Below, piece by piece: positions 13,729-38,709 of a stretch of 64,000 nucleotides of DNA. The stretch lies in IMG/VR virus record IMGVR_UViG_3300037424_001372, positions 1-64,000 of that record; one strand, written 5' to 3'. A model generated the notes under the pieces. It worked only from the letters and a program-made list of their open reading frames with translations, was not told where the DNA came from and searched no databases. Every line of letters begins with the position of its first letter. Position 1 is the first letter of the stretch. This DNA is from a virus (lineage: Duplodnaviria; Heunggongvirae; Uroviricota; Caudoviricetes). The position numbers and the translations under genes were made by a program.

Positions 13729-14735
13729 GTGATTATTTTTTTGTAAAACTAATGATTTCCTTCTTTAAATGCAAGAAAAAAGGGAGCTAACGCTCCCTTT
13801 TTATTAAAAATATTTATTAGACAAGTACTTTAGTCGATCAGTCATAGAAATATATGTGGATTAAAAATTTACTTTAGAACTTCTACTAAAATTTCTTATT
13901 TTAGTTTTTAATTTATTATTATTACAGTTATTACCACTATAATGATTCACATAATTATTATTATAATTTCTATTAATATTATTAATTGGTATAAAATGTA
14001 TTTGATAACAAGGTGTTAAAAAAAATCCAATGTAAAAAATGATTTTATTTTCAAAATTATTATTTGTCATATATTATTTGTTAATTGATATTAATTATTC
14101 ATTTCCAAATTTAAATATAATTTTTCTAATTATCATATAACTTGAAAAACAAATTGACATTATTTTAATGATAATTAAAAATCACAAAACTTATTTTCAC
14201 GCTAGTTTTAATCTTTTGGCAATTATTGTAACATGCCAATCGTCACAATATTTTATTGGTTTATTTTCTTGATATGAAAAAATTTCCCAATTATCATTCC
14301 CGATCTCATTTAATTTAGTCATTAAATCACCAATATTTTTAATATTGATTTCAATTCTAGCATACTCCCACATATCTAATATTTTAAAATAAATACTAAT
14401 TATAAATATTCTATTCAATACTTTTAATCAATAGTAGCTGATTGTAATATTTTCATCAAATGTTGGTAGGATATATTTAAAATATTCAGTTTCTGTAATA
14501 GTATATTTATATTTCTTTGGTAATAATAAACATGAAATTCTATATCCTCTTAATTTTTGATGTGAATCAATAGTTTTTATGTCATCTTCACTTAAAACAA
14601 CCATATAAGTTTCTTTATTGACATATTTGAAATCTGATTTCATTTCAATTTTATGCACAGAACTTGTGATATTTTTAATACCATAAACTTTTATAATATT
14701 CATAATTATGGGTTCATTTTATCAATATATGTTTT

Positions 14736-14848
14736 CACAGTATCTAAAGACACGGAAAAACCATGCAATTAGTTTACGATTTTAATAATCGATGGGATTA
14801 CTGATAACCCCTCTATCCCATCAGCAAAAACATTTGGGATTGCTTTTT
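14736..14848 (-). mobile_element. IS200/IS605 tnpB 3'-end / right-end remnant, copy 1
   Basis: Encodes KAIPNVFADGIEGLSVIPSIIKIVN*; near-identical copy at 18471-18585. Confidence 0.6.
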
Positions 14849-14879
14849 AAAAAAATGATAGATTTTTTCAAATATTTGA

Positions 14880-14959
14880 TGGTAACGGTGATGAGATTCG
14901 AACTCACATTGATTCCAATTACACTTCCACAGTTTAGAAGACTGTTGTGATACACCGTC
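14880..14959 (-). tRNA. tRNA-Arg(UCU), lacking a canonical D-arm, encoded CCA
   Basis: GACGGTG acceptor, ACAGT-CTTCTAA-ACTGT, GTGAG-TTCGAAT-CTCAT, ACCA end. Confidence 0.7.
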
Positions 14960-15264
14960 ATATTATTTTTTGTAAATGTATTCATTAATAATGAATAAAC
15001 AAATTTTTTTTAAAAAATATTTATAAATAATCAAATTCAATTGTTTAAATGTTATATAATTATTATTAATATTTACATAATTCACACATTAATGTCTTTT
15101 TTAAAAAAGAATGACTATTTATATGTAAATAACATTTAACATTAATAGAATATCCAACACATAATTTTGAGCATTCTGTCTGATTTGAACATCATATCTT
15201 GATTACAATCTATTGTTTAATAAATAACTGATCTGCCTTTGAGCCACATGTGCAAATAAATAAA

Positions 15265-15458
15265 TATTGTTTGGTGAACTCCCCAATTACTGTTCACTAT
15301 ATACTGCTTTAGTTAAGTTTTACGTTGCAACGGCTGAGTGAGGTTTGATGTATTATCAACTACTTGGCTTTCCCCATGTCATGGAAATTATAACAGGATT
15401 CGAACCCACGCCTTTCTAAGATATGTCTATCATAGATTTCATCATACATCCAAACAAT
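15265..15458 (-). ncRNA. candidate structured RNA containing a tRNA-like T-loop
   Basis: Closed by ATTGTTTGG..CCAAACAAT; contains GGGTTCGAATCC. Confidence 0.35.
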
Positions 15459-15467
15459 ATTTACTTG

Positions 15468-15541
15468 CGCCTCGAATAGGACTCGAACCTATAACCCACA
15501 GATTAACAGTCTGTTGCGCTAACCAATTACGCTATCGAGGC
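15468..15541 (-). tRNA. tRNA-Asn(GUU)
   Basis: ACAGA-CTGTTAA-TCTGT; full cloverleaf. Confidence 0.9.
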
Positions 15542-15554
15542 AATTTGTTGAGTA

Positions 15555-15962
15555 TTATTTACTCAACATTTCTTTAACAACGCTGCTTGATATTCTACCA
15601 TCAATTAAGGAAGCATTTGGGAGTTTTTTTATCTCACCCATAACTTTACCAATATCAGCCATTGAAGCATATCCGTTATCAGAAATTATCTTTGTAATAA
15701 TAGTACTGATTTCAGTCATATCCAACATTTGGGGCAAATATTTTGATAAAATTTCAACATCTTTAAATGACCCAACAATTTCAGCATCGTTAGATACTTT
15801 TCTAATTACTTTTACAGAAATTTCATCAGGTAACTCTTTACCATGTTTTTCAATTTCTCTCGCAAATTCACCCATAACAACTCTAAGAATTGATTTGGTG
15901 GCTTCGTCTTTGTTTAGCATAGCGGATTTCAAATCAACGCTAATTTGTTTTTGTATTGTCAT
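15555..15962 (-). CDS. GatB/YqeY domain protein
   Basis: DLKSAMLNKD..ILSKYLPQML..IGKVMG. Confidence 0.85.
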   Translation of the reverse strand: MTIQKQISVDLKSAMLNKDEATKSILRVVMGEFAREIEKHGKELPDEISVKVIRKVSNDAEIVGSFKDVEILSKYLPQMLDMTEISTIITKIISDNGYASMADIGKVMGEIKKLPNASLIDGRISSSVVKEMLSK

Positions 15963-16005
15963 AAATCTTTCAATAAAAATGTTTAGCAATATTTTATGAG
16001 ATGTG

Positions 16006-16079
16006 TGGGCCTGAAGGGATTTGAACCCCCTATCTCCTGATTATGAGTCAGATGCATCTACCAAATATGCTACAGGCCA
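16006..16079 (-). tRNA. tRNA-Met or Ile2 (CAU)
   Basis: TCTGA-CTCATAA-TCAGG. Confidence 0.85.
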
Positions 16080-16084
16080 ATGTG

Positions 16085-16170
16085 AGCAGATAGTGGAATT
16101 CGAACCCACGTTGTGATGTTATCTTTCCAGCTTGGAATGCTGGCACAATCGACCACTATGTGATATCTGC
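16085..16170 (-). tRNA. tRNA-Gly(UCC), extended variable region
   Basis: CCAGC-ATTCCAA-GCTGG; U73. Confidence 0.8.
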
Positions 16171-16173
16171 ATT

Positions 16174-16677
16174 TTAACATTTAAAAACTATAATGTCTTG
16201 TGGGGCTTTTTTATTACCACCAAAATAAAAACCTAGCATATAACCAAATCCATTTTTTTTAATAGGTATTACTTCATGTTTATAACAATTACCATCAACA
16301 AAATATAAAATACTATTTTCATTGGGATTGTATGATATCAAAACATGAACCCAAATATTTAAATCAACAGTAGTAATTATTTTAGGTTTTTGTCTAATAC
16401 CATTAATATATTCATAAGTTAGAATTTCGATACTATTGTTGTTAGAACTTGGCCTCCATCCTAATCTAAATGAATTATTATGATGTAATCCAATACTAAA
16501 GCCAAACAATTTATTTATATCTAATTGGTCGTTATCATTAAAATCATAAAGACATGAAGATGTAAACATAAACGATGTCGTTTTTGTTGTGGGACAATGT
16601 TTATTAACAATAATAGGTGTCGGAATCCATATTAATGGATAGTGACGACCACTTTTTATTTTAATTTTCTTAAACAT
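16174..16677 (-). CDS. hypothetical beta-rich phage protein
   Basis: INKLFGFS..HHNNS.R.GWR..YFGGNKKAP. Confidence 0.65.
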   Translation of the reverse strand: MFKKIKIKSGRHYPLIWIPTPIIVNKHCPTTKTTSFMFTSSCLYDFNDNDQLDINKLFGFSIGLHHNNSFRLGWRPSSNNNSIEILTYEYINGIRQKPKIITTVDLNIWVHVLISYNPNENSILYFVDGNCYKHEVIPIKKNGFGYMLGFYFGGNKKAPQDIIVFKC

Positions 16678-16877
16678 TATTTATCTTTTTTAAAGAACCA
16701 ACTATAACAAATAAATCCAATTGATATTACAAAAAATGATACAATACCGACATTAATATTATTGAATAGTAATCCCATACCAGTAGCTATAATACCAAAT
16801 AAGATAAATCGTGAAAAACCAATTAATAAATTAAGTAACACACTACCTAATCCATTTTTTTTAAAATATTTTCCCAT
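16677..16877 (-). CDS. small two-TM membrane protein
   Basis: Two hydrophobic segments. Confidence 0.6.
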   Translation of the reverse strand: MGKYFKKNGLGSVLLNLLIGFSRFILFGIIATGMGLLFNNINVGIVSFFVISIGFICYSWFFKKDK

Positions 16878-16931
16878 AATAATTTTATTTTAAGATAAAT
16901 ACCTTTATCAATAATAATATTAGTTTATTAA

Positions 16932-17297
16932 CTATATTTTCCAATCAATGAATTCTAATTGAAAATCATTTGAAATTAATTCTGATAAATTAACAACAAA
17001 TTCTTTAATAAATAAATTAAATTCATTTCGATTTGGTTTATAGTGACCGCTATTATTATTAATGTAAGTTATTTTACCATCCTCATTAATAATCATTTCA
17101 CCTGCCATTATAAGTTCTCGACATTTTTTATTTAATTTAAAGTGTCCGAAACCAAATAATAATTCGTTATCATTGTTGACAACAAAATCAATTTTTCGAT
17201 TTATCGCTTCATCAATAATATTAATCGAATCTTCAATTATTTCAAAATCATATGTTTTACTTCCTACTTGTGGTAAAAATTCTTTTAACAGTACCAT
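16932..17297 (-). CDS. SGHY-motif protein (polymorphic-toxin-like domain), paralog 2
   Basis: GHFKL..AGEM..GKI.YINNNSGHYKP. Confidence 0.55.
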   Translation of the reverse strand: MVLLKEFLPQVGSKTYDFEIIEDSINIIDEAINRKIDFVVNNDNELLFGFGHFKLNKKCRELIMAGEMIINEDGKITYINNNSGHYKPNRNEFNLFIKEFVVNLSELISNDFQLEFIDWKI

Positions 17298-17347
17298 TTT
17301 TTAATCATTTTTGAAGTGATACGATAATCTAAATAAAAAGTTACAAA

Positions 17348-17782
17348 TTATTCATGTCTTTTTTCAATTTGAGTTTCAGGCGTAGTTAAATTCATTTCTC
17401 TAAATAAATTATAAATATCTTGAACATTTTGATGACTTGGTTCATAATGACCCGATTCATTATTTAAATAAATAATTTTACCTTGGTCATTAATTTTAAT
17501 TTCACCAGCAGCTTTAATATTAGGTGCTTTTTTAGATAATTTATAATGTCCACCACCAATCGTTAAATTACCATCCATATCAACAACAAAATCATATAAT
17601 ATGTTTGGTTCGAATCTATTATCAAGAACTTCAACACTATCTGCAGTTACATTTGTTGGAAATTTACCTACTCTACTTAACTGTGGCGCATCGCTTTTTA
17701 ATGTAATGTTAGGTAATGTGCTAACATCAAATTCGTCAACAAAATCATTGATTTCTTCTTTGATAATATTAATAATATTCAT
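17348..17782 (-). CDS. SGHY-motif protein with IIKEE N-terminus, paralog 1
   Basis: GHYKL..AAGEI..GKI.YLNNESGHYEP; late motif upstream. Confidence 0.55.
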   Translation of the reverse strand: MNIINIIKEEINDFVDEFDVSTLPNITLKSDAPQLSRVGKFPTNVTADSVEVLDNRFEPNILYDFVVDMDGNLTIGGGHYKLSKKAPNIKAAGEIKINDQGKIIYLNNESGHYEPSHQNVQDIYNLFREMNLTTPETQIEKRHE

Positions 17783-17844
17783 AACAAAATTTTAATATAA
17801 ATACCATTAATAATTTAAAAATGATATTCAATCAATTTTTAATG

Positions 17845-17935
17845 CGGAAAGCAGAGGACCCGACCCCCATCCGATTTTACTCGAAACCATGTTTTCAAGA
17901 CATGTCGCCACTCCAATGTAACTGCTTTACTTTCC
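17845..17935 (-). tRNA. tRNA-Ser(UGA)
   Basis: CATGT-CTTGAAA-ACATG, long V arm, G73; T-loop divergent. Confidence 0.75.
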
Positions 17936-18056
17936 ATTATCTTTTATATAATTTTCAACCATCTAGTATATTGTCACAGTTTTTAATTTTCAAATTATTA
18001 TTATCATTTGTTATCCAACAAGTACCGTATTGTGAATTACAAAAAACGACCAAGGG

Positions 18057-18142
18057 CGGAGAGTAAGGGACTCGAACCCTTGCGCCACGAATGACCTAAC
18101 ACGTTAGCAATGTGCCCCCTTCACCAACTTGGGTAACTCTCC
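18057..18142 (-). tRNA. tRNA-Ser(GCU)
   Basis: GCACA-TTGCTAA-CGTGT, long V arm, G73. Confidence 0.9.
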
Positions 18143-18203
18143 GAAAATGACCTTATTCATTACAAACACAATATGTTGGTCAAACCAGTATTGATTGGTT
18201 TTG

Positions 18204-18278
18204 TCGCCTCGATGAGACTTGAACTCATAACTTCCACGTTATCAGCGTGGTGCTCTAACCAGATTGAACTACGAGGCA
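18204..18278 (-). tRNA. tRNA-Ile(GAU)
   Basis: CCACG-CTGATAA-CGTGG. Confidence 0.9.
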
Positions 18279-18330
18279 ATATAAAAAAGAACTCACTAAA
18301 TTGCTTTAGCTGGTTCTAAACTAATTGAAA

Positions 18331-18474
18331 CTATATTTCAATTTTACGAATTTCATTCAAAATTGCTTTTGGATTAATTTCACTAGTCGATACTTTTTCA
18401 TAGATATCACTAGAATATCCGAACAAGTTAATCAACTTTTCATTTTGTTTGAACATAGTACTACAATATCCACA
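18331..18474 (-). pseudogene. C-terminal relic of a probable TROVE/Ro60 protein
   Basis: CGYCSTMFKQNEKLINLFGYSSDIYEKVSTSEINPKAILNEIRKIEI* resembles the TROVE C-terminus; cut at a tnpB end; Y-RNA-like elements upstream. Confidence 0.5.
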
Positions 18475-18585
18475 GTATCTAAAAAAATATAAAAAATATG
18501 CAATTAGTTTACGATTTTAATAATCGATGGGATCACTGATAATCCCTCTATCCCATCAGCAAAAACATTTGGGACTGCTTTTTTT
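18471..18585 (-). mobile_element. IS200/IS605 tnpB 3'-end / right-end remnant, copy 2
   Basis: KKAVPNVFADGIEGLSVIPSIIKIVN*; duplicate of 14736-14848. Confidence 0.6.
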
Positions 18586-18628
18586 AATATAAAGAGTTTT
18601 TATACCGTTGGTATTATTTAGGTAAAAT

Positions 18629-18708
18629 AAGAGGGAATATTGATATCGATATTGTTTCAATGTTTGATTAACTGTCAAGTCGAAGTAACCGAATATCTTA
18701 CCACTTTT
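18629..18708 (-). ncRNA. Y-RNA-like element A
   Basis: AGTGGTAA..GGTTACTTCG 5' motif pairing with ..ATTCCCTCT 3' end. Confidence 0.5.
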
Positions 18709-18720
18709 AATGTTTAATTG

Positions 18721-18802
18721 TTGCGAGAGTGGGACTCGAACCCACGAGGCACTAGGCGGTAGGTTATGTGCCTACTAAGATACTAACTTCTTACATCTCG
18801 CA
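18721..18802 (-). tRNA. tRNA-Met(CAU), extended variable region, A33
   Basis: GTAGG-CACATAA-CCTAC; TGCGAGA acceptor. Confidence 0.7.
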
Positions 18803-18828
18803 ATATTTTTTTGCCCATTTTGGACTAG

Positions 18829-18967
18829 CAGGGAGGGCTGGAGTCGAACCCACATACTTTTGCACATAAAACAAATGCTTTAACCATTTCGAAGTAACCA
18901 AATCAATAACTACTATTGCTAGAGAATACTAGATTTAGTGAATTTTCTTTTTTTTAGCTACCTCCCC
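18829..18967 (-). ncRNA. tRNA-like RNA (UAU loop) with a permuted Y-RNA-like stem inserted in the D-loop (element B)
   Basis: GGGGAGG/CCTCCCT acceptor, GCT..AGC D-stem around an insert containing GGTTACTTCG, GGGTTCGACTCC T-loop. Confidence 0.45.
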
Positions 18968-18977
18968 ATATGATATT

Positions 18978-19108
18978 AGTAAGGGAAAGGGTGAAAGAGT
19001 GTCATTGTTGTAAAAAGCTGGAATTGAACCAGCAACTTTTTAATCCCAAATTAAACGTACTACCATTGTACAATTTTTACGAAGTAACTCTTTCTATCAC
19101 CACTTACT
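18978..19108 (-). ncRNA. Y-RNA-like element C enclosing a complete tRNA-Pro(UGG)-like cloverleaf (19009-19080)
   Basis: AGTAAGTGGTGATAGAAAGAGTTACTTC-[cloverleaf]-CACTCTTTCACCCTTTCCCTTACT. Confidence 0.55.
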
Positions 19109-19233
19109 ATATTGTAAGTAATTTTATTTTACATCTTCAGTATTTCAAATAACGTTTTTGTTTGACAAACATAAGATATTTTTTTTAATTCCAAACATTT
19201 TTTTTTAAAAAATTTAATATTTAAAAAATAACG

Positions 19234-19307
19234 CGCACATAATAGGATTTGAACCTATGACATTTCGCTTAACAGGCGAACGCTCTAACCAACTGAGCTA
19301 TATGTGC
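19234..19307 (-). tRNA. tRNA-Asn(GUU)
   Basis: TTCGC-CTGTTAA-GCGAA. Confidence 0.9.
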
Positions 19308-19312
19308 AAGAG

Positions 19313-19384
19313 AGTAGGTGACAGGATTCGAACCTGCATAAGATGGGTTGCAGCCAACTACCTAAACCGATCGGACACACCTAC
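19313..19384 (-). tRNA. tRNA-Cys(GCA)
   Basis: GTTGG-CTGCAAC-CCATC; U73. Confidence 0.85.
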
Positions 19385-19553
19385 ATAATTATAAAACATT
19401 TCGTCATTCATAACATTGTATGAATGTGCAGTAATCACCACGAGCAGGTAGTTTTATATGATTACCAAACCAGCATGTCAAAGGACTTTTTCTTTTTATA
19501 TTGTTATTACGACATATAATGTATTTATGTTACAATAATAACATATTTTTTTG

Positions 19554-19636
19554 AGCTGAGTGTCAGATTCGAACTGACGTGTCCTTTCGGATTTGGGTTA
19601 CAAAGCCAACGCAATCGACCACTATGCGAACTCAGC
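19554..19636 (-). tRNA. tRNA-Thr(UGU), extended variable arm
   Basis: TTGGC-TTTGTAA-CCCAA; TCC-GAAA-GGA V arm. Confidence 0.75.
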
Positions 19637-19649
19637 GAACTCATTAAAT

Positions 19650-19680
19650 AAAAAACCCGAATCTTTCGAATCGGGTTTTT
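19650..19680 (-). terminator. attenuator terminator of tRNA operon 1
   Basis: AAAAACCCGA-TTCGAAAGAT-TCGGGTTTTTT; competing strand GGGTTTTTGTTT at 19720-19731. Confidence 0.85.
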
Positions 19681-19701
19681 GTCTTTTGTTCAGAAATTTC
19701 G

Positions 19702-19836
19702 TTAAACTTCCGTATCACTAAACAAAAACCCATTATCACTTCTGTCACTACTATTAAACGAACAGAATATACTATTTCCATTGCGACTAATTGTAGTCGT
19801 TATAGAGCTAATGATATTTGTAAATAATGTTTTCAT
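19702..19836 (-). CDS. leader peptide 1 (44 aa), MKTLFTNIISSITTTISRNGNSIFCSFNSSDRSDNGFLFSDTEV
   Basis: Between promoter and terminator; composition matches downstream tRNAs. Confidence 0.8.
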   Translation of the reverse strand: MKTLFTNIISSITTTISRNGNSIFCSFNSSDRSDNGFLFSDTEV

Positions 19837-19897
19837 TTTTTATATTTTATAATTTTAATTGTCGGGAAAATCCCGTCTTGAGTTTATAAATACTCAG

Positions 19898-19928
19898 CAA
19901 AGATATAAAATGTTGATACAACTGCAAA
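19898..19928 (-). promoter_or_regulatory. Bacteroidota primary-sigma promoter of tRNA operon 1, with adjacent late motif
   Basis: TTTG-N19-TATCTTTG then GTATTTATA. Confidence 0.8.
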
Positions 19929-19956
19929 CTTTTTTTCATCTTTTTTGAAGAAAAAT

Positions 19957-20232
19957 TTATAACCTACTGATAATAAGTTCATTATTTTTTAAAACAATTG
20001 TATCTTTTTCTTCATATGATATCAATTTAAATTGAATTCTGGTGCAAGATACTGAGGACGTGACTTCAAAATGTCCATTAAAATCAGTATAGGTTGTGTC
20101 ACATTCAGTAGTAACACGTACACCACAAAGCTCTTCACCAGTATTCTTATCATATACATAACCACCAATTTTAGACGGTGTCGAATAAAGATTACACATT
20201 AAAATTCCTATTAATATTAATTTACTAATCAT
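19957..20232 (-). CDS. secreted carboxypeptidase-regulatory-like domain protein
   Basis: Signal peptide; G.VYDKNTGEEL.GV.V..TYTDFNGHF..ISY. Confidence 0.7.
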   Translation of the reverse strand: MISKLILIGILMCNLYSTPSKIGGYVYDKNTGEELCGVRVTTECDTTYTDFNGHFEVTSSVSCTRIQFKLISYEEKDTIVLKNNELIISRL

Positions 20233-27831: not shown

Positions 27832-27971
27832 TTATACATAAGTATTAATTATAAAATTATTTTAAGTAAATGTAATATGTTTTAATAAAAATGGCAAGAA
27901 ATATTTTAATTTAGATTTAATTACAATGAAAATATTTAAAATAAAAAACCAGTTAATTCTTTAACTGGTTG

Positions 27972-28056
27972 TGAGAGTGGCAGGATTCGAACCTGCTGTG
28001 TTTCTATGTGTCAGATTTACAGTCTGATGCCCATCCACCATCTGAGCAGCACTCCC
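27972..28056 (-). tRNA. tRNA-Tyr(GUA)
   Basis: TCAGA-CTGTAAA-TCTGA, long V arm. Confidence 0.85.
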
Positions 28057-28066
28057 GAATAAAAAC

Positions 28067-28096
28067 AAAAAACCTGATTCATTTGAATCGGGTTTT
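28067..28096 (-). terminator. terminator directly upstream of tRNA-Tyr
   Basis: AAAACCCGATTC-AAAT-GAATCAGGTTTTTT. Confidence 0.75.
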
Positions 28097-36633: not shown

Positions 36634-36645
36634 ATGTCAAAGAAC
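36634..36645 (-). promoter_or_regulatory. boxA-like antitermination signal
   Basis: GTTCTTTGACAT; similar at 38428-38438, 19475-19486 and 19143-19153. Confidence 0.6.
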
Positions 36646-36874: not shown

Positions 36875-36905
36875 CAAAGTTATAAAATGTTACAACAACT
36901 GCAAA
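36875..36905 (-). promoter_or_regulatory. Bacteroidota primary-sigma promoter of tRNA operon 2
   Basis: TTTG-N19-TAACTTTG; near-identical to the operon 1 promoter. Confidence 0.8.
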
Positions 36906-37704: not shown

Positions 37705-37799
37705 GATTTATAATTTTTAGATGATACGTTATTTATTGAAAAATGTTTCAATTATTATTGAATTTTTCTATAAATACTTTAATTAAAAGTAATTGAGTG

Positions 37800-37882
37800 T
37801 TGTCCCCACAGGATTCGAACCTGTAAACCCTAATGGGTGTCTGCTTCAAAGACAGATGCAATAACCATTCTGCCAGAGGACA
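37800..37882 (-). tRNA. tRNA-Gln(UUG), extended variable arm
   Basis: TCTGT-CTTTGAA-GCAGA; ACCC-ATTA-GGGT arm; U1-A72. Confidence 0.8.
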
Positions 37883-38447: not shown

Positions 38448-38543
38448 TCAGGAATGTGGGATTCGAACCCACGGATGACAACGCCTTTGTGTCATCGCTG
38501 GTTTCCAAGACCAGCAGCTTAAACATTACTCGACCGCTTCCTG
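38448..38543 (-). tRNA. tRNA-Pro(UGG) with very long variable arm
   Basis: CTGGT-CTTGGAA-ACCAG; GATGACA..TGTCATC arm; C1:G72, A73. Confidence 0.7.
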
Positions 38544-38626: not shown

Positions 38627-38638
38627 CTATATTTTTTG

Positions 38639-38709
38639 TTGTCCTCAGAGGATTCGGACCTCTACGCCAACAGTCAAAGTGTTGTGTGCTACCATTACAC
38701 TAGAGGACA
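38639..38709 (-). tRNA. tRNA-Gln(UUG)
   Basis: CAACA-CTTTGAC-TGTTG; U1-A72. Confidence 0.85.

Follow-up and report, generated by a model that had tools for sequence, protein, structure and literature searches.

The first 64 kb of a 324,744-bp virus record in IMG/VR (IMGVR_UViG_3300037424_001372, Caudoviricetes; CheckV completeness 100%, GC content ~27%), referred to as the window in the following, carry several groups of transfer RNA (tRNA) genes, all of them on the minus strand. This study concerns one of these groups, unit 1, in which genes for tRNAs of threonine, cysteine, asparagine, proline, isoleucine, serine, glycine and arginine, a CAU-anticodon tRNA and several protein-coding sequences follow a short open reading frame (ORF) that we call leader 1 (Table 1). 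The properties of this leader make it likely that it is a transcription attenuator, in which the position of a translating ribosome would control the expression of unit 1. Its codons furthermore point to a tRNA-Phe gene, which is present in the relatives of this phage and has been lost from this genome.

Leader 1 is preceded by the sequence TTTG-N19-TAnnTTTG, which, going by the consensus, we take to be a Bacteroidota-type promoter. A strict scan finds five copies of this motif on the minus strand of the 64 kb, and leader 1 and two similar leaders (leaders 2 and 3) described below each have one of them directly upstream; the copy at leader 2 (36875-36905) is almost identical to that at leader 1, and the promoter upstream of leader 1 is kept in nine relatives. 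Further upstream, a gene for a vWA protein is closed by a terminator (20345-20309) and followed by an ORF of 91 amino acids (aa), after which comes the leader-1 promoter (motif scan). The leader-1 ORF begins 62 nucleotides (nt) past the end of the promoter's -7 box and encodes exactly the 44-residue peptide that a first-pass annotation of this DNA had proposed. It is followed by an intrinsic terminator, the hairpin AAAAACCCGATTC-GAAA-GATTCGGGTTTTTT (-14.2 kcal/mol) with its U-run, and by tRNA-Thr, the first gene past the terminator, which starts at 19636. The locus therefore has the layout of an attenuator, with a short ATG-initiated ORF between promoter and tRNA genes and a terminator between this ORF and the tRNA genes.

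Table 1. Leader 1, tRNA unit 1 and the tRNA-Gln gene discussed in the text. Positions are those of the window.
Feature	Position	Strand	Basis and remarks
Promoter TTTG-N19-TAnnTTTG	19898..19928	-	Strict motif scan
Leader-1 ORF, ATG, 44 codons + stop	19702..19836	-	Translation matches the 44-residue peptide of the first-pass annotation
Hairpin A, CGACT(A)/(T)AGTCG	19784..19799	-	Per-sequence folds; within codons T-T..S-R
Hairpin B, TTCTGTT/GACAGAA	19740..19767	-	5' arm = codons I-F-C including Phe24 TTC; 3' side = G-R-N
Antiterminator strand (region 2), GGGTTTTTGTTT	19720..19731	-	RNAduplex; codons G-F-L-F
Intrinsic terminator with U-run	19650..19684	-	Fold, motif scan; hairpin 19680-19650
tRNA-Thr(UGU), 84 nt, long variable arm	19553..19636	-	ARAGORN + Rfam
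Conserved non-coding element 5' of tRNA-Cys	19385..19490	-	80-91% identity in at least 17 relatives
tRNA-Cys(GCA)	19312..19384	-	ARAGORN + Rfam
tRNA-Asn(GUU)	19233..19307	-	ARAGORN + Rfam
tRNA-Pro(UGG)	19009..19080	-	ARAGORN + Rfam, 67.6 bits
Doubtful CAU tRNA	18720..18802	-	ARAGORN only; no Rfam tRNA match even at E <= 10
tRNA-Ile(GAU)	18203..18278	-	ARAGORN + Rfam
tRNA-Ser(GCU)	18054..18143	-	ARAGORN + Rfam; 90% identical to Ser(GCU) of L007
Ser(UGA)-like sequence	17844..17930	-	ARAGORN at 90% threshold only; no Rfam match
Four ORFs, 144/121/66/167 aa	16174..17782	-	Occupy the slot of the relatives' tRNA-Phe
tRNA-Gly(UCC), 87 nt	16084..16170	-	ARAGORN + Rfam
CAU-anticodon tRNA (Met, or Ile2 reading ATA)	16005..16079	-	ARAGORN + Rfam
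YqeY-like protein gene amid tRNA genes	15555..15989	-	Pfam PF09424, E = 4.6e-19
tRNA-Asn(GUU), second copy	15467..15541	-	ARAGORN + Rfam
tRNA-Arg(UCU)	14883..14959	-	Rfam only, 36.2 bits; anticodon loop CTTCTAA read from the sequence
Long-arm tRNA-Gln(UUG)	37800..37882	-	Rfam alignment; miscalled Phe(GAA) by ARAGORN at 37799-37882

The 5' arm of the terminator has a second potential partner within the ORF. This strand, referred to as region 2, is predicted to pair with GACAAAAACCC (19683-19673) in the 5' arm and its flank (19684-19673), in a duplex of 12 bp and -16.2 kcal/mol (z = -4.9), an energy that none of 300 dinucleotide shuffles matches. Thus, the pairing between this part of the ORF and the terminator arm that had been proposed from inspection of the letters stands up to a quantitative test, and the 5' arm with its flank would double as the partner of an antiterminator.

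The putative regulatory codons of the leader are enriched for amino acids that are served by the tRNAs downstream. A recount confirms that threonine, asparagine, isoleucine, serine, arginine, glycine and cysteine (T/N/I/S/R/G/C) account for 23 of the 25 residues from position 6 to position 30, the exceptions being Phe24 and Phe27, while the same seven amino acids make up 42% of the residues in the long ORFs of this genome. An AT-rich background, which the first-pass annotation had named as the explanation that would speak against its reading, can be rejected as the source of this bias, as 23/25 is reached by leader 1 alone among 823 small ORFs and, within long ORFs, by not a single one of 65,667 windows. 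The match extends to the level of codons. For tRNA calling, we used ARAGORN and the Rfam covariance models and kept solid calls apart from sub-threshold ones; solid unit-1 tRNAs can read 20 of the 28 codons from codon 3 to codon 30, compared to 32% of codons genome-wide (P = 2e-5). Serine is written AGY in seven of nine cases (36% genome-wide), in accordance with Ser(GCU), and the two glycine codons, GGA or GGG, likewise suit Gly(UCC).

Relatives of the locus were gathered via the vWA protein encoded upstream of leader 1, which yielded 12 viral and 59 metagenomic loci at 62-83% identity (individual loci are given as L numbers). Leader 1 was recognised in 49 of these loci, corresponding to 36 distinct peptides, on which the wider counts below are based, and ten orthologues were folded in detail. 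Since a MAFFT alignment of the leaders (A1) misregistered the CCCG cores of several sequences, the folds were computed sequence by sequence. In all 36 relatives, the ORF is open over 38-45 codons and contains the core xR(N/I)(G/E)..(I/V/T)(F/S)C, and in all 36 a hairpin follows whose 5' core is of the CCCG type and whose 3' core is of the CGGGT type; the U-run is also kept in the ten examined closely. For nine of the ten orthologues, the scan gave terminators of -13 to -16 kcal/mol, and it missed that of the remaining one (L010) because the U-run there is interrupted. Their stems vary in sequence among the relatives with the pairing preserved. Likewise, the ORF segment that gives the best duplex with the 5' arm falls within the final 10-35 nt of the reading frame in 10/10 orthologues (z = -1.5 to -5.0) and in 34/36 leaders overall. 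Relatives without the ORF or without the antiterminator pairing, the other outcome that the first-pass annotation had named as counting against its reading, are therefore not what we find: ORF, terminator and pairing are all kept.

Several features indicate what is being conserved. The (C)GGGT sequence of the antiterminator strand is retained across different reading frames (GGG TTT here, aCG GGT in L004), so that this constraint acts on the RNA. The antiterminator flank also co-varies beyond what mere copying of the U-run would give, with ACAAAAA/TTTTTGT here, CAGAA/TTCTG in L004 and AGACCCGAC/GTCGGGTCT in L071. Two further hairpins fold within the ORF. Hairpin A, with the conserved core CGAC(T)/(A)GTCG, forms in 10/10 orthologues with varying loops, and its columns are invariant in alignment A1. 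Hairpin B takes the form ATTCTG/CAGAAAT in relatives, with loops from 4 nt upwards, and the sequence in its region, ATATTCTGT, is conserved even at synonymous sites in the same alignment. Both hairpins may be pause or timing elements. In the N-terminal segment, by contrast, it is the composition that is conserved and not the sequence, as 83% of its residues fall within the set T/C/N/I/S/F/G/R/M at a mean identity of 39% (36 peptides). Within the putative stall zone, where a halted ribosome would leave region 2 free, 860 of 960 codons (90%) are in the set, compared to 348 of 504 (69%) in the tail; the corresponding Fisher P of 1e-21 is an indication rather than a probability, as the sequences are related.

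The predicted pairings respond to the position of a modelled ribosome. In transcripts cut before the 3' arm of the terminator, the 5' arm is paired to the ORF in 10/10 orthologues when the ribosome stands at codons 8-27, and it is partly or fully freed when the ribosome stands at about codons 33-39.

Leader 1 has counterparts elsewhere in the window. Leader 2, which starts at about 36830, is rich in L/D/V/E/A/W and precedes tRNAs for Asp, Glu, Val, Leu, Ala and Trp, and leader 3, which starts at about 38893, contains the string HQPQQPQHPQ and precedes tRNAs for Gln, Pro and His. Both have the same build as leader 1, and each is unmatched in the genome for its own residue set. Relatives possess a fourth, Lys/Tyr-rich leader (..KYYFGKKSYKK..RIGN; found in L005, L010, L011, L013, L014 and L023), which is followed by a terminator and by tRNAs for Lys and Tyr. 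In this genome, the fourth unit (27971-28096) is reduced to a similar terminator hairpin (28096-28067) and a single tRNA-Tyr; it has neither a Lys/Tyr leader nor a tRNA-Lys.

These observations can be accommodated in a model in which leader 1 is a ribosome-sensed attenuator of unit 1, the explanation that we consider probable. Transcription would start at the promoter, and the 44-codon ORF would be translated while it emerges. A ribosome slowed on codons 3-30, i.e. on Thr, Asn, Ile, Ser, Arg, Gly, Cys or Phe codons, would leave region 2 free to pair with the 5' arm of the terminator before the 3' arm exists, and RNA polymerase would continue into the tRNA genes. A ribosome that reaches codons ~33-44 would cover region 2 instead, such that the terminator could form and transcription would stop. 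We thus infer that readthrough depends on stalling: unit 1 would be expressed while decoding of its own codon classes is slow, and it would be shut off when its tRNAs are plentiful.

The two phenylalanine codons among the otherwise matching residues had led the first-pass annotation, which found no tRNA-Phe here, to predict one in the corresponding operon of relatives. This prediction is borne out in 23/23 relatives. There are 24 distinct lineages whose sequence covers unit 1 through tRNA-Gly(UCC); 23 of them carry one to three tRNA-Phe(GAA) genes in this unit, directly 5' of Gly(UCC) in 21 of the 23, and this genome represents the only lineage without one. Here, Gly(UCC) is instead preceded by four ORFs, for which neither Pfam nor PHROG gives a match. 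Homologues of the 167-aa ORF lie further downstream in the unit 1 of relatives, which suggests a local rearrangement. (Two of the four ORFs, at 16932-17297 and 17348-17782 on the minus strand, are paralogues with 39-50% identity by tblastn, and no homologue of either was found in the relatives' loci.) No remnant of the gene was detected in unit 1, either by BLAST with the tRNAs of relatives or in a scan of 14,800-19,640 for GAA stem-loops, and ARAGORN at lowered threshold returned only an implausible AAA call inside an ORF of this unit. Nor did the phage GenBank collection contain a close relative by which the loss could be dated; none of the relatives has the ORFs that occupy the Phe slot in common with this genome, and the best vWA identity among the 71 loci is ~80%. 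Unit 1 of this genome has thus lost its tRNA-Phe. We consider it probable that the ancestral unit 1 held this gene beside Gly(UCC), that it disappeared here in a local rearrangement, and that the Phe codons of the leader, as well as its CGC codon, are now orphans. The Phe codons would then be an inherited part of the sensor.

For the genome as a whole, the absence of tRNA-Phe hinges on a gene at the end of the His/Gln/Pro unit. ARAGORN reads it as Phe(GAA) at 37799-37882, with an anticodon stem of five Watson-Crick pairs, and if this were right, tRNA-Phe would have been moved to unit 3 rather than lost. We consider this highly improbable. Covariance-model alignment of 37800-37882 places the stem two bases earlier (UCUGU/GCAGA, loop CUUUGAA), which yields the anticodon UUG and the normal junction geometry with a single base between D and anticodon stems, whereas the register of ARAGORN requires three bases at this point. 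With ~80% identity and the same loop, the gene resembles the long-arm Gln(UUG) that relatives have at this place in their His/Gln/Pro unit, and the string CTGTCTTTGAAGCAG is identical in this tRNA, L023 and L025; its identity to the relatives' Phe tRNAs is only 47-60%. Moreover, it has the acceptor 5' strand TGTCCTC in common with the Gln(UUG) at 38638-38709, and the relatives' unit 3 comprises Pro, His and Gln tRNAs only. A relocated tRNA-Phe is thus rejected on the anticodon, the kinship with Gln and the content of unit 3 in relatives. Since the sole Phe call of ARAGORN is a Gln(UUG) and none of the other 33 Rfam tRNAs of the genome (34 in total) is a Phe candidate, the genome has no credible tRNA-Phe, and the earlier failure to find one holds genome-wide. 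As a practical caution, ARAGORN here misreads a long-arm tRNA-Gln(UUG) as tRNA-Phe, and the long-arm scaffold can mislead the program on the anticodon register. Long variable arms also occur on other tRNAs that are normally short-armed: besides Thr (84 nt, 19553-19636), Gly(UCC) (87 nt, 16084-16170) and the Gln(UUG) just described (83 nt), the genome has a Pro(UGG) of 93 nt (38449-38541). Some of them have a D-arm sequence in common, and relatives carry the same type.

A number of results weigh against leader 1 as a switch of the proposed kind. Full-length equilibrium folds keep the terminator at most ribosome positions in most relatives, the cut transcript makes the antiterminator also without a ribosome, and with the ribosome at the last codon, represented by a simple 27-nt mask, region 2 becomes free again in several sequences. 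Furthermore, there is no evident anti-antiterminator (1:2) state and, unlike in the trp leader, no obvious superattenuated state. The switch would thus depend on kinetic, co-transcriptional folding, and the model additionally needs a steric block by the terminating ribosome. The codon match is imperfect as well: unit 1 includes Pro(UGG), yet leader 1 has no Pro codon; its CGC codon, which is rare (2% of Arg codons genome-wide) and located in hairpin A, is retained without its reader Arg(ACG), which is now gone; the leader of L012 keeps Ile and Asn codons, for which ARAGORN gives no tRNAs there; and with two to five Phe codons per leader in 36/36 leaders, the five of this genome are the joint maximum, so that there is no sign of an adjustment following the loss of tRNA-Phe. 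The leaders thus record ancestral tRNA content rather than closely following the present one. Finally, hairpins A and B contain Phe24, Arg18 and further conserved codons, which implies that the match is maintained in part by RNA structure and common descent. For Phe24 in particular, whose TTC in the 5' arm of hairpin B pairs with the GAA of an AGA codon, retention may be structural and need not reflect sensing.

The retained CGC codon, the unpurged Phe codons, the orphan codons of L012, the position of Phe24 and the synonymous-site conservation of ATATTCTGT all suit an explanation in which RNA structure and common ancestry, rather than sensing of phenylalanine decoding, account for the retention of the Phe codons. 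The leader would then be a conserved structured RNA with a frozen codon make-up, and the successful Phe prediction would only mean that tRNA gene content changes faster than the leader does. We consider this unlikely, as it leaves unexplained both why the unstructured N-terminal segment should keep its composition at such low identity and why four different leaders should each match their own tRNA block; in addition, most Phe codons (positions 5 and 27 as well as those in the variable segments of relatives) lie outside the hairpin arms. It is also compatible with attenuation as such and weakens only the claim of Phe sensing in this genome. Far less probable is a functional peptide as the product of the small ORF, or no translation of this ORF at all, with the hairpin merely ending the upstream transcript and the likeness to the tRNA set arising from AT-richness or chance. 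It is true that a genome of 27% GC encodes many N, I, S, T, K and F residues and that the conserved SRNGNxIFCS could be a peptide motif. However, this motif coincides with the RNA hairpins, the composition of leader 1 is unmatched among the small ORFs and long-ORF windows, the upstream vWA gene has its own terminator and the leader its own promoter, and three other leaders match three other tRNA sets.

Leader-peptide attenuation is textbook knowledge for amino-acid operons. In enterobacteria, multivalent leader peptides include thrL (Thr/Ile) and the leader of ilvGMEDA (Ile/Leu/Val), and trpL and hisL are attenuators of the same kind. The leader-peptide attenuator pheL has been reviewed as well (PMC3082878). 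Leader 1 resembles the thrL, ilv, trpL, hisL and pheL leaders in having a short codon-rich ORF, a terminator just downstream and an alternative pairing that takes up the 5' arm, such that the position of the ribosome would decide; its make-up is similar to that of thrL in particular, with Thr and Ile runs followed by G-N-G. Unlike the leaders of amino-acid operons, it would control tRNA genes and not biosynthetic or synthetase genes, and it samples at least eight amino-acid classes. Moreover, its antiterminator strand lies within the 3' end of the ORF, whereas that of classical leaders lies beyond the stop codon, and its setting is a phage with Bacteroidota-type promoters. The Rfam models Thr_leader (RF00506; 17.7 bits vs a gathering threshold of 55, E = 9.2) and Trp_leader (RF00513; 17.5 bits vs 41, E = 7.4) match leader 1 at chance level; by these scores, it belongs to neither of the two curated families. 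T-boxes, which recognise uncharged tRNA by direct binding and lack a leader ORF, are similar in that a leader RNA chooses between terminator and antiterminator according to tRNA status. Yet no T-box was matched by Rfam in the window at gathering thresholds, nor in 14600-19960 at E <= 10, and by this measure leader 1 is not a T-box. A full-text literature search found no paper that applies leader-peptide attenuation to tRNA genes.

It is conceivable, although we put this forward only tentatively, that the leaders together form a four-channel sensor of decoding capacity, which would follow the speed at which ribosomes read each class of codons. Each channel would activate its own tRNA block once the host's tRNAs have been depleted or cleaved, for instance by anticodon nucleases or during host shut-off. 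Should the attenuation of tRNA genes proposed above prove right, phages would control their tRNA supply by feedback from decoding speed, which bears on the role of tRNA genes in phages and on the response of phages to host defences that target tRNAs. Under the sensor reading, leader composition would also be a record of ancestral tRNA content, from which lost tRNA genes could be predicted by the leader alone, as was the case for Phe. The relatives constitute a natural experiment in this respect: the leader-only prediction came true in every one of them, and the lone exception, this genome, shows that leaders can outlive the genes they match.

As for the remaining content of unit 1, the tRNA list of the first-pass annotation needs some revision. 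The genes for Thr, Cys, both Asn, Ile, Ser(GCU), Gly, one CAU tRNA and Arg hold, the second Ser and the second CAU tRNA are sub-threshold, and Pro(UGG) had been overlooked. The sub-threshold Ser(UGA)-like sequence is probably decayed. The solid CAU tRNA sits where relatives have Ile(UAU) or Met(CAU), and the YqeY-like gene next to it is also kept in the unit 1 of L004, L007 and L012. tRNA-Pro(UGG) is preceded by a promoter-like TTTG-N18-TAnnTTTG (19195-19166); among the relatives examined, only L067 has a Pro tRNA in unit 1, and the sequences closest to that of this genome are Thr tRNAs, at ~60-65% identity. Decayed tRNA fragments had been suspected at about 15167-15250, but the candidates, at 15186-15253 and 15385-15451, score 14-18 bits, which is below significance.

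Likewise, the ends of an insertion sequence (IS) that had been thought to scar this operon turned out to be two of six copies of a dispersed, structured repeat of ~120 nt. Two copies lie in the window (14736-14866 and 18471-18601) and four elsewhere in the genome (206116-206250, 241937-242079, 248963-249102 and 273079-273218). IS ends were rejected, as no IS feature is seen. The repeat forms three hairpins, and its most diverged copy carries compensatory changes (ATCCC/GGGAT to ATTCC/GGAAT and CGAT/ATCG to AGAT/ATCT). In five of the six copies, an ORF starts within ~65 nt downstream, and the repeat is without a match in Rfam.

Two further sequence elements accompany the tRNA genes. The non-coding element 5' of tRNA-Cys is near-invariant over ~85 nt in a nine-sequence alignment (A2) and outdoes the tRNAs in conservation. 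It starts with GTTCTTTGACATGCTGG, a motif that is found again past the terminators of leader 2 (36634-36644) and of the leaders in most relatives, where 13-20 nt separate it from the first tRNA. The sequence GTTCTTTGACAT was considered as a sigma-70 promoter of the first tRNA and rejected, as its distance to the 5' end of that tRNA is only 13-20 nt. Lastly, a motif of ~28 nt containing GGTTACTTCG occurs three times on the minus strand of unit 1 (19077-19104, 18887-18914 and 18678-18705), in each case adjoining a tRNA or tRNA-like body.

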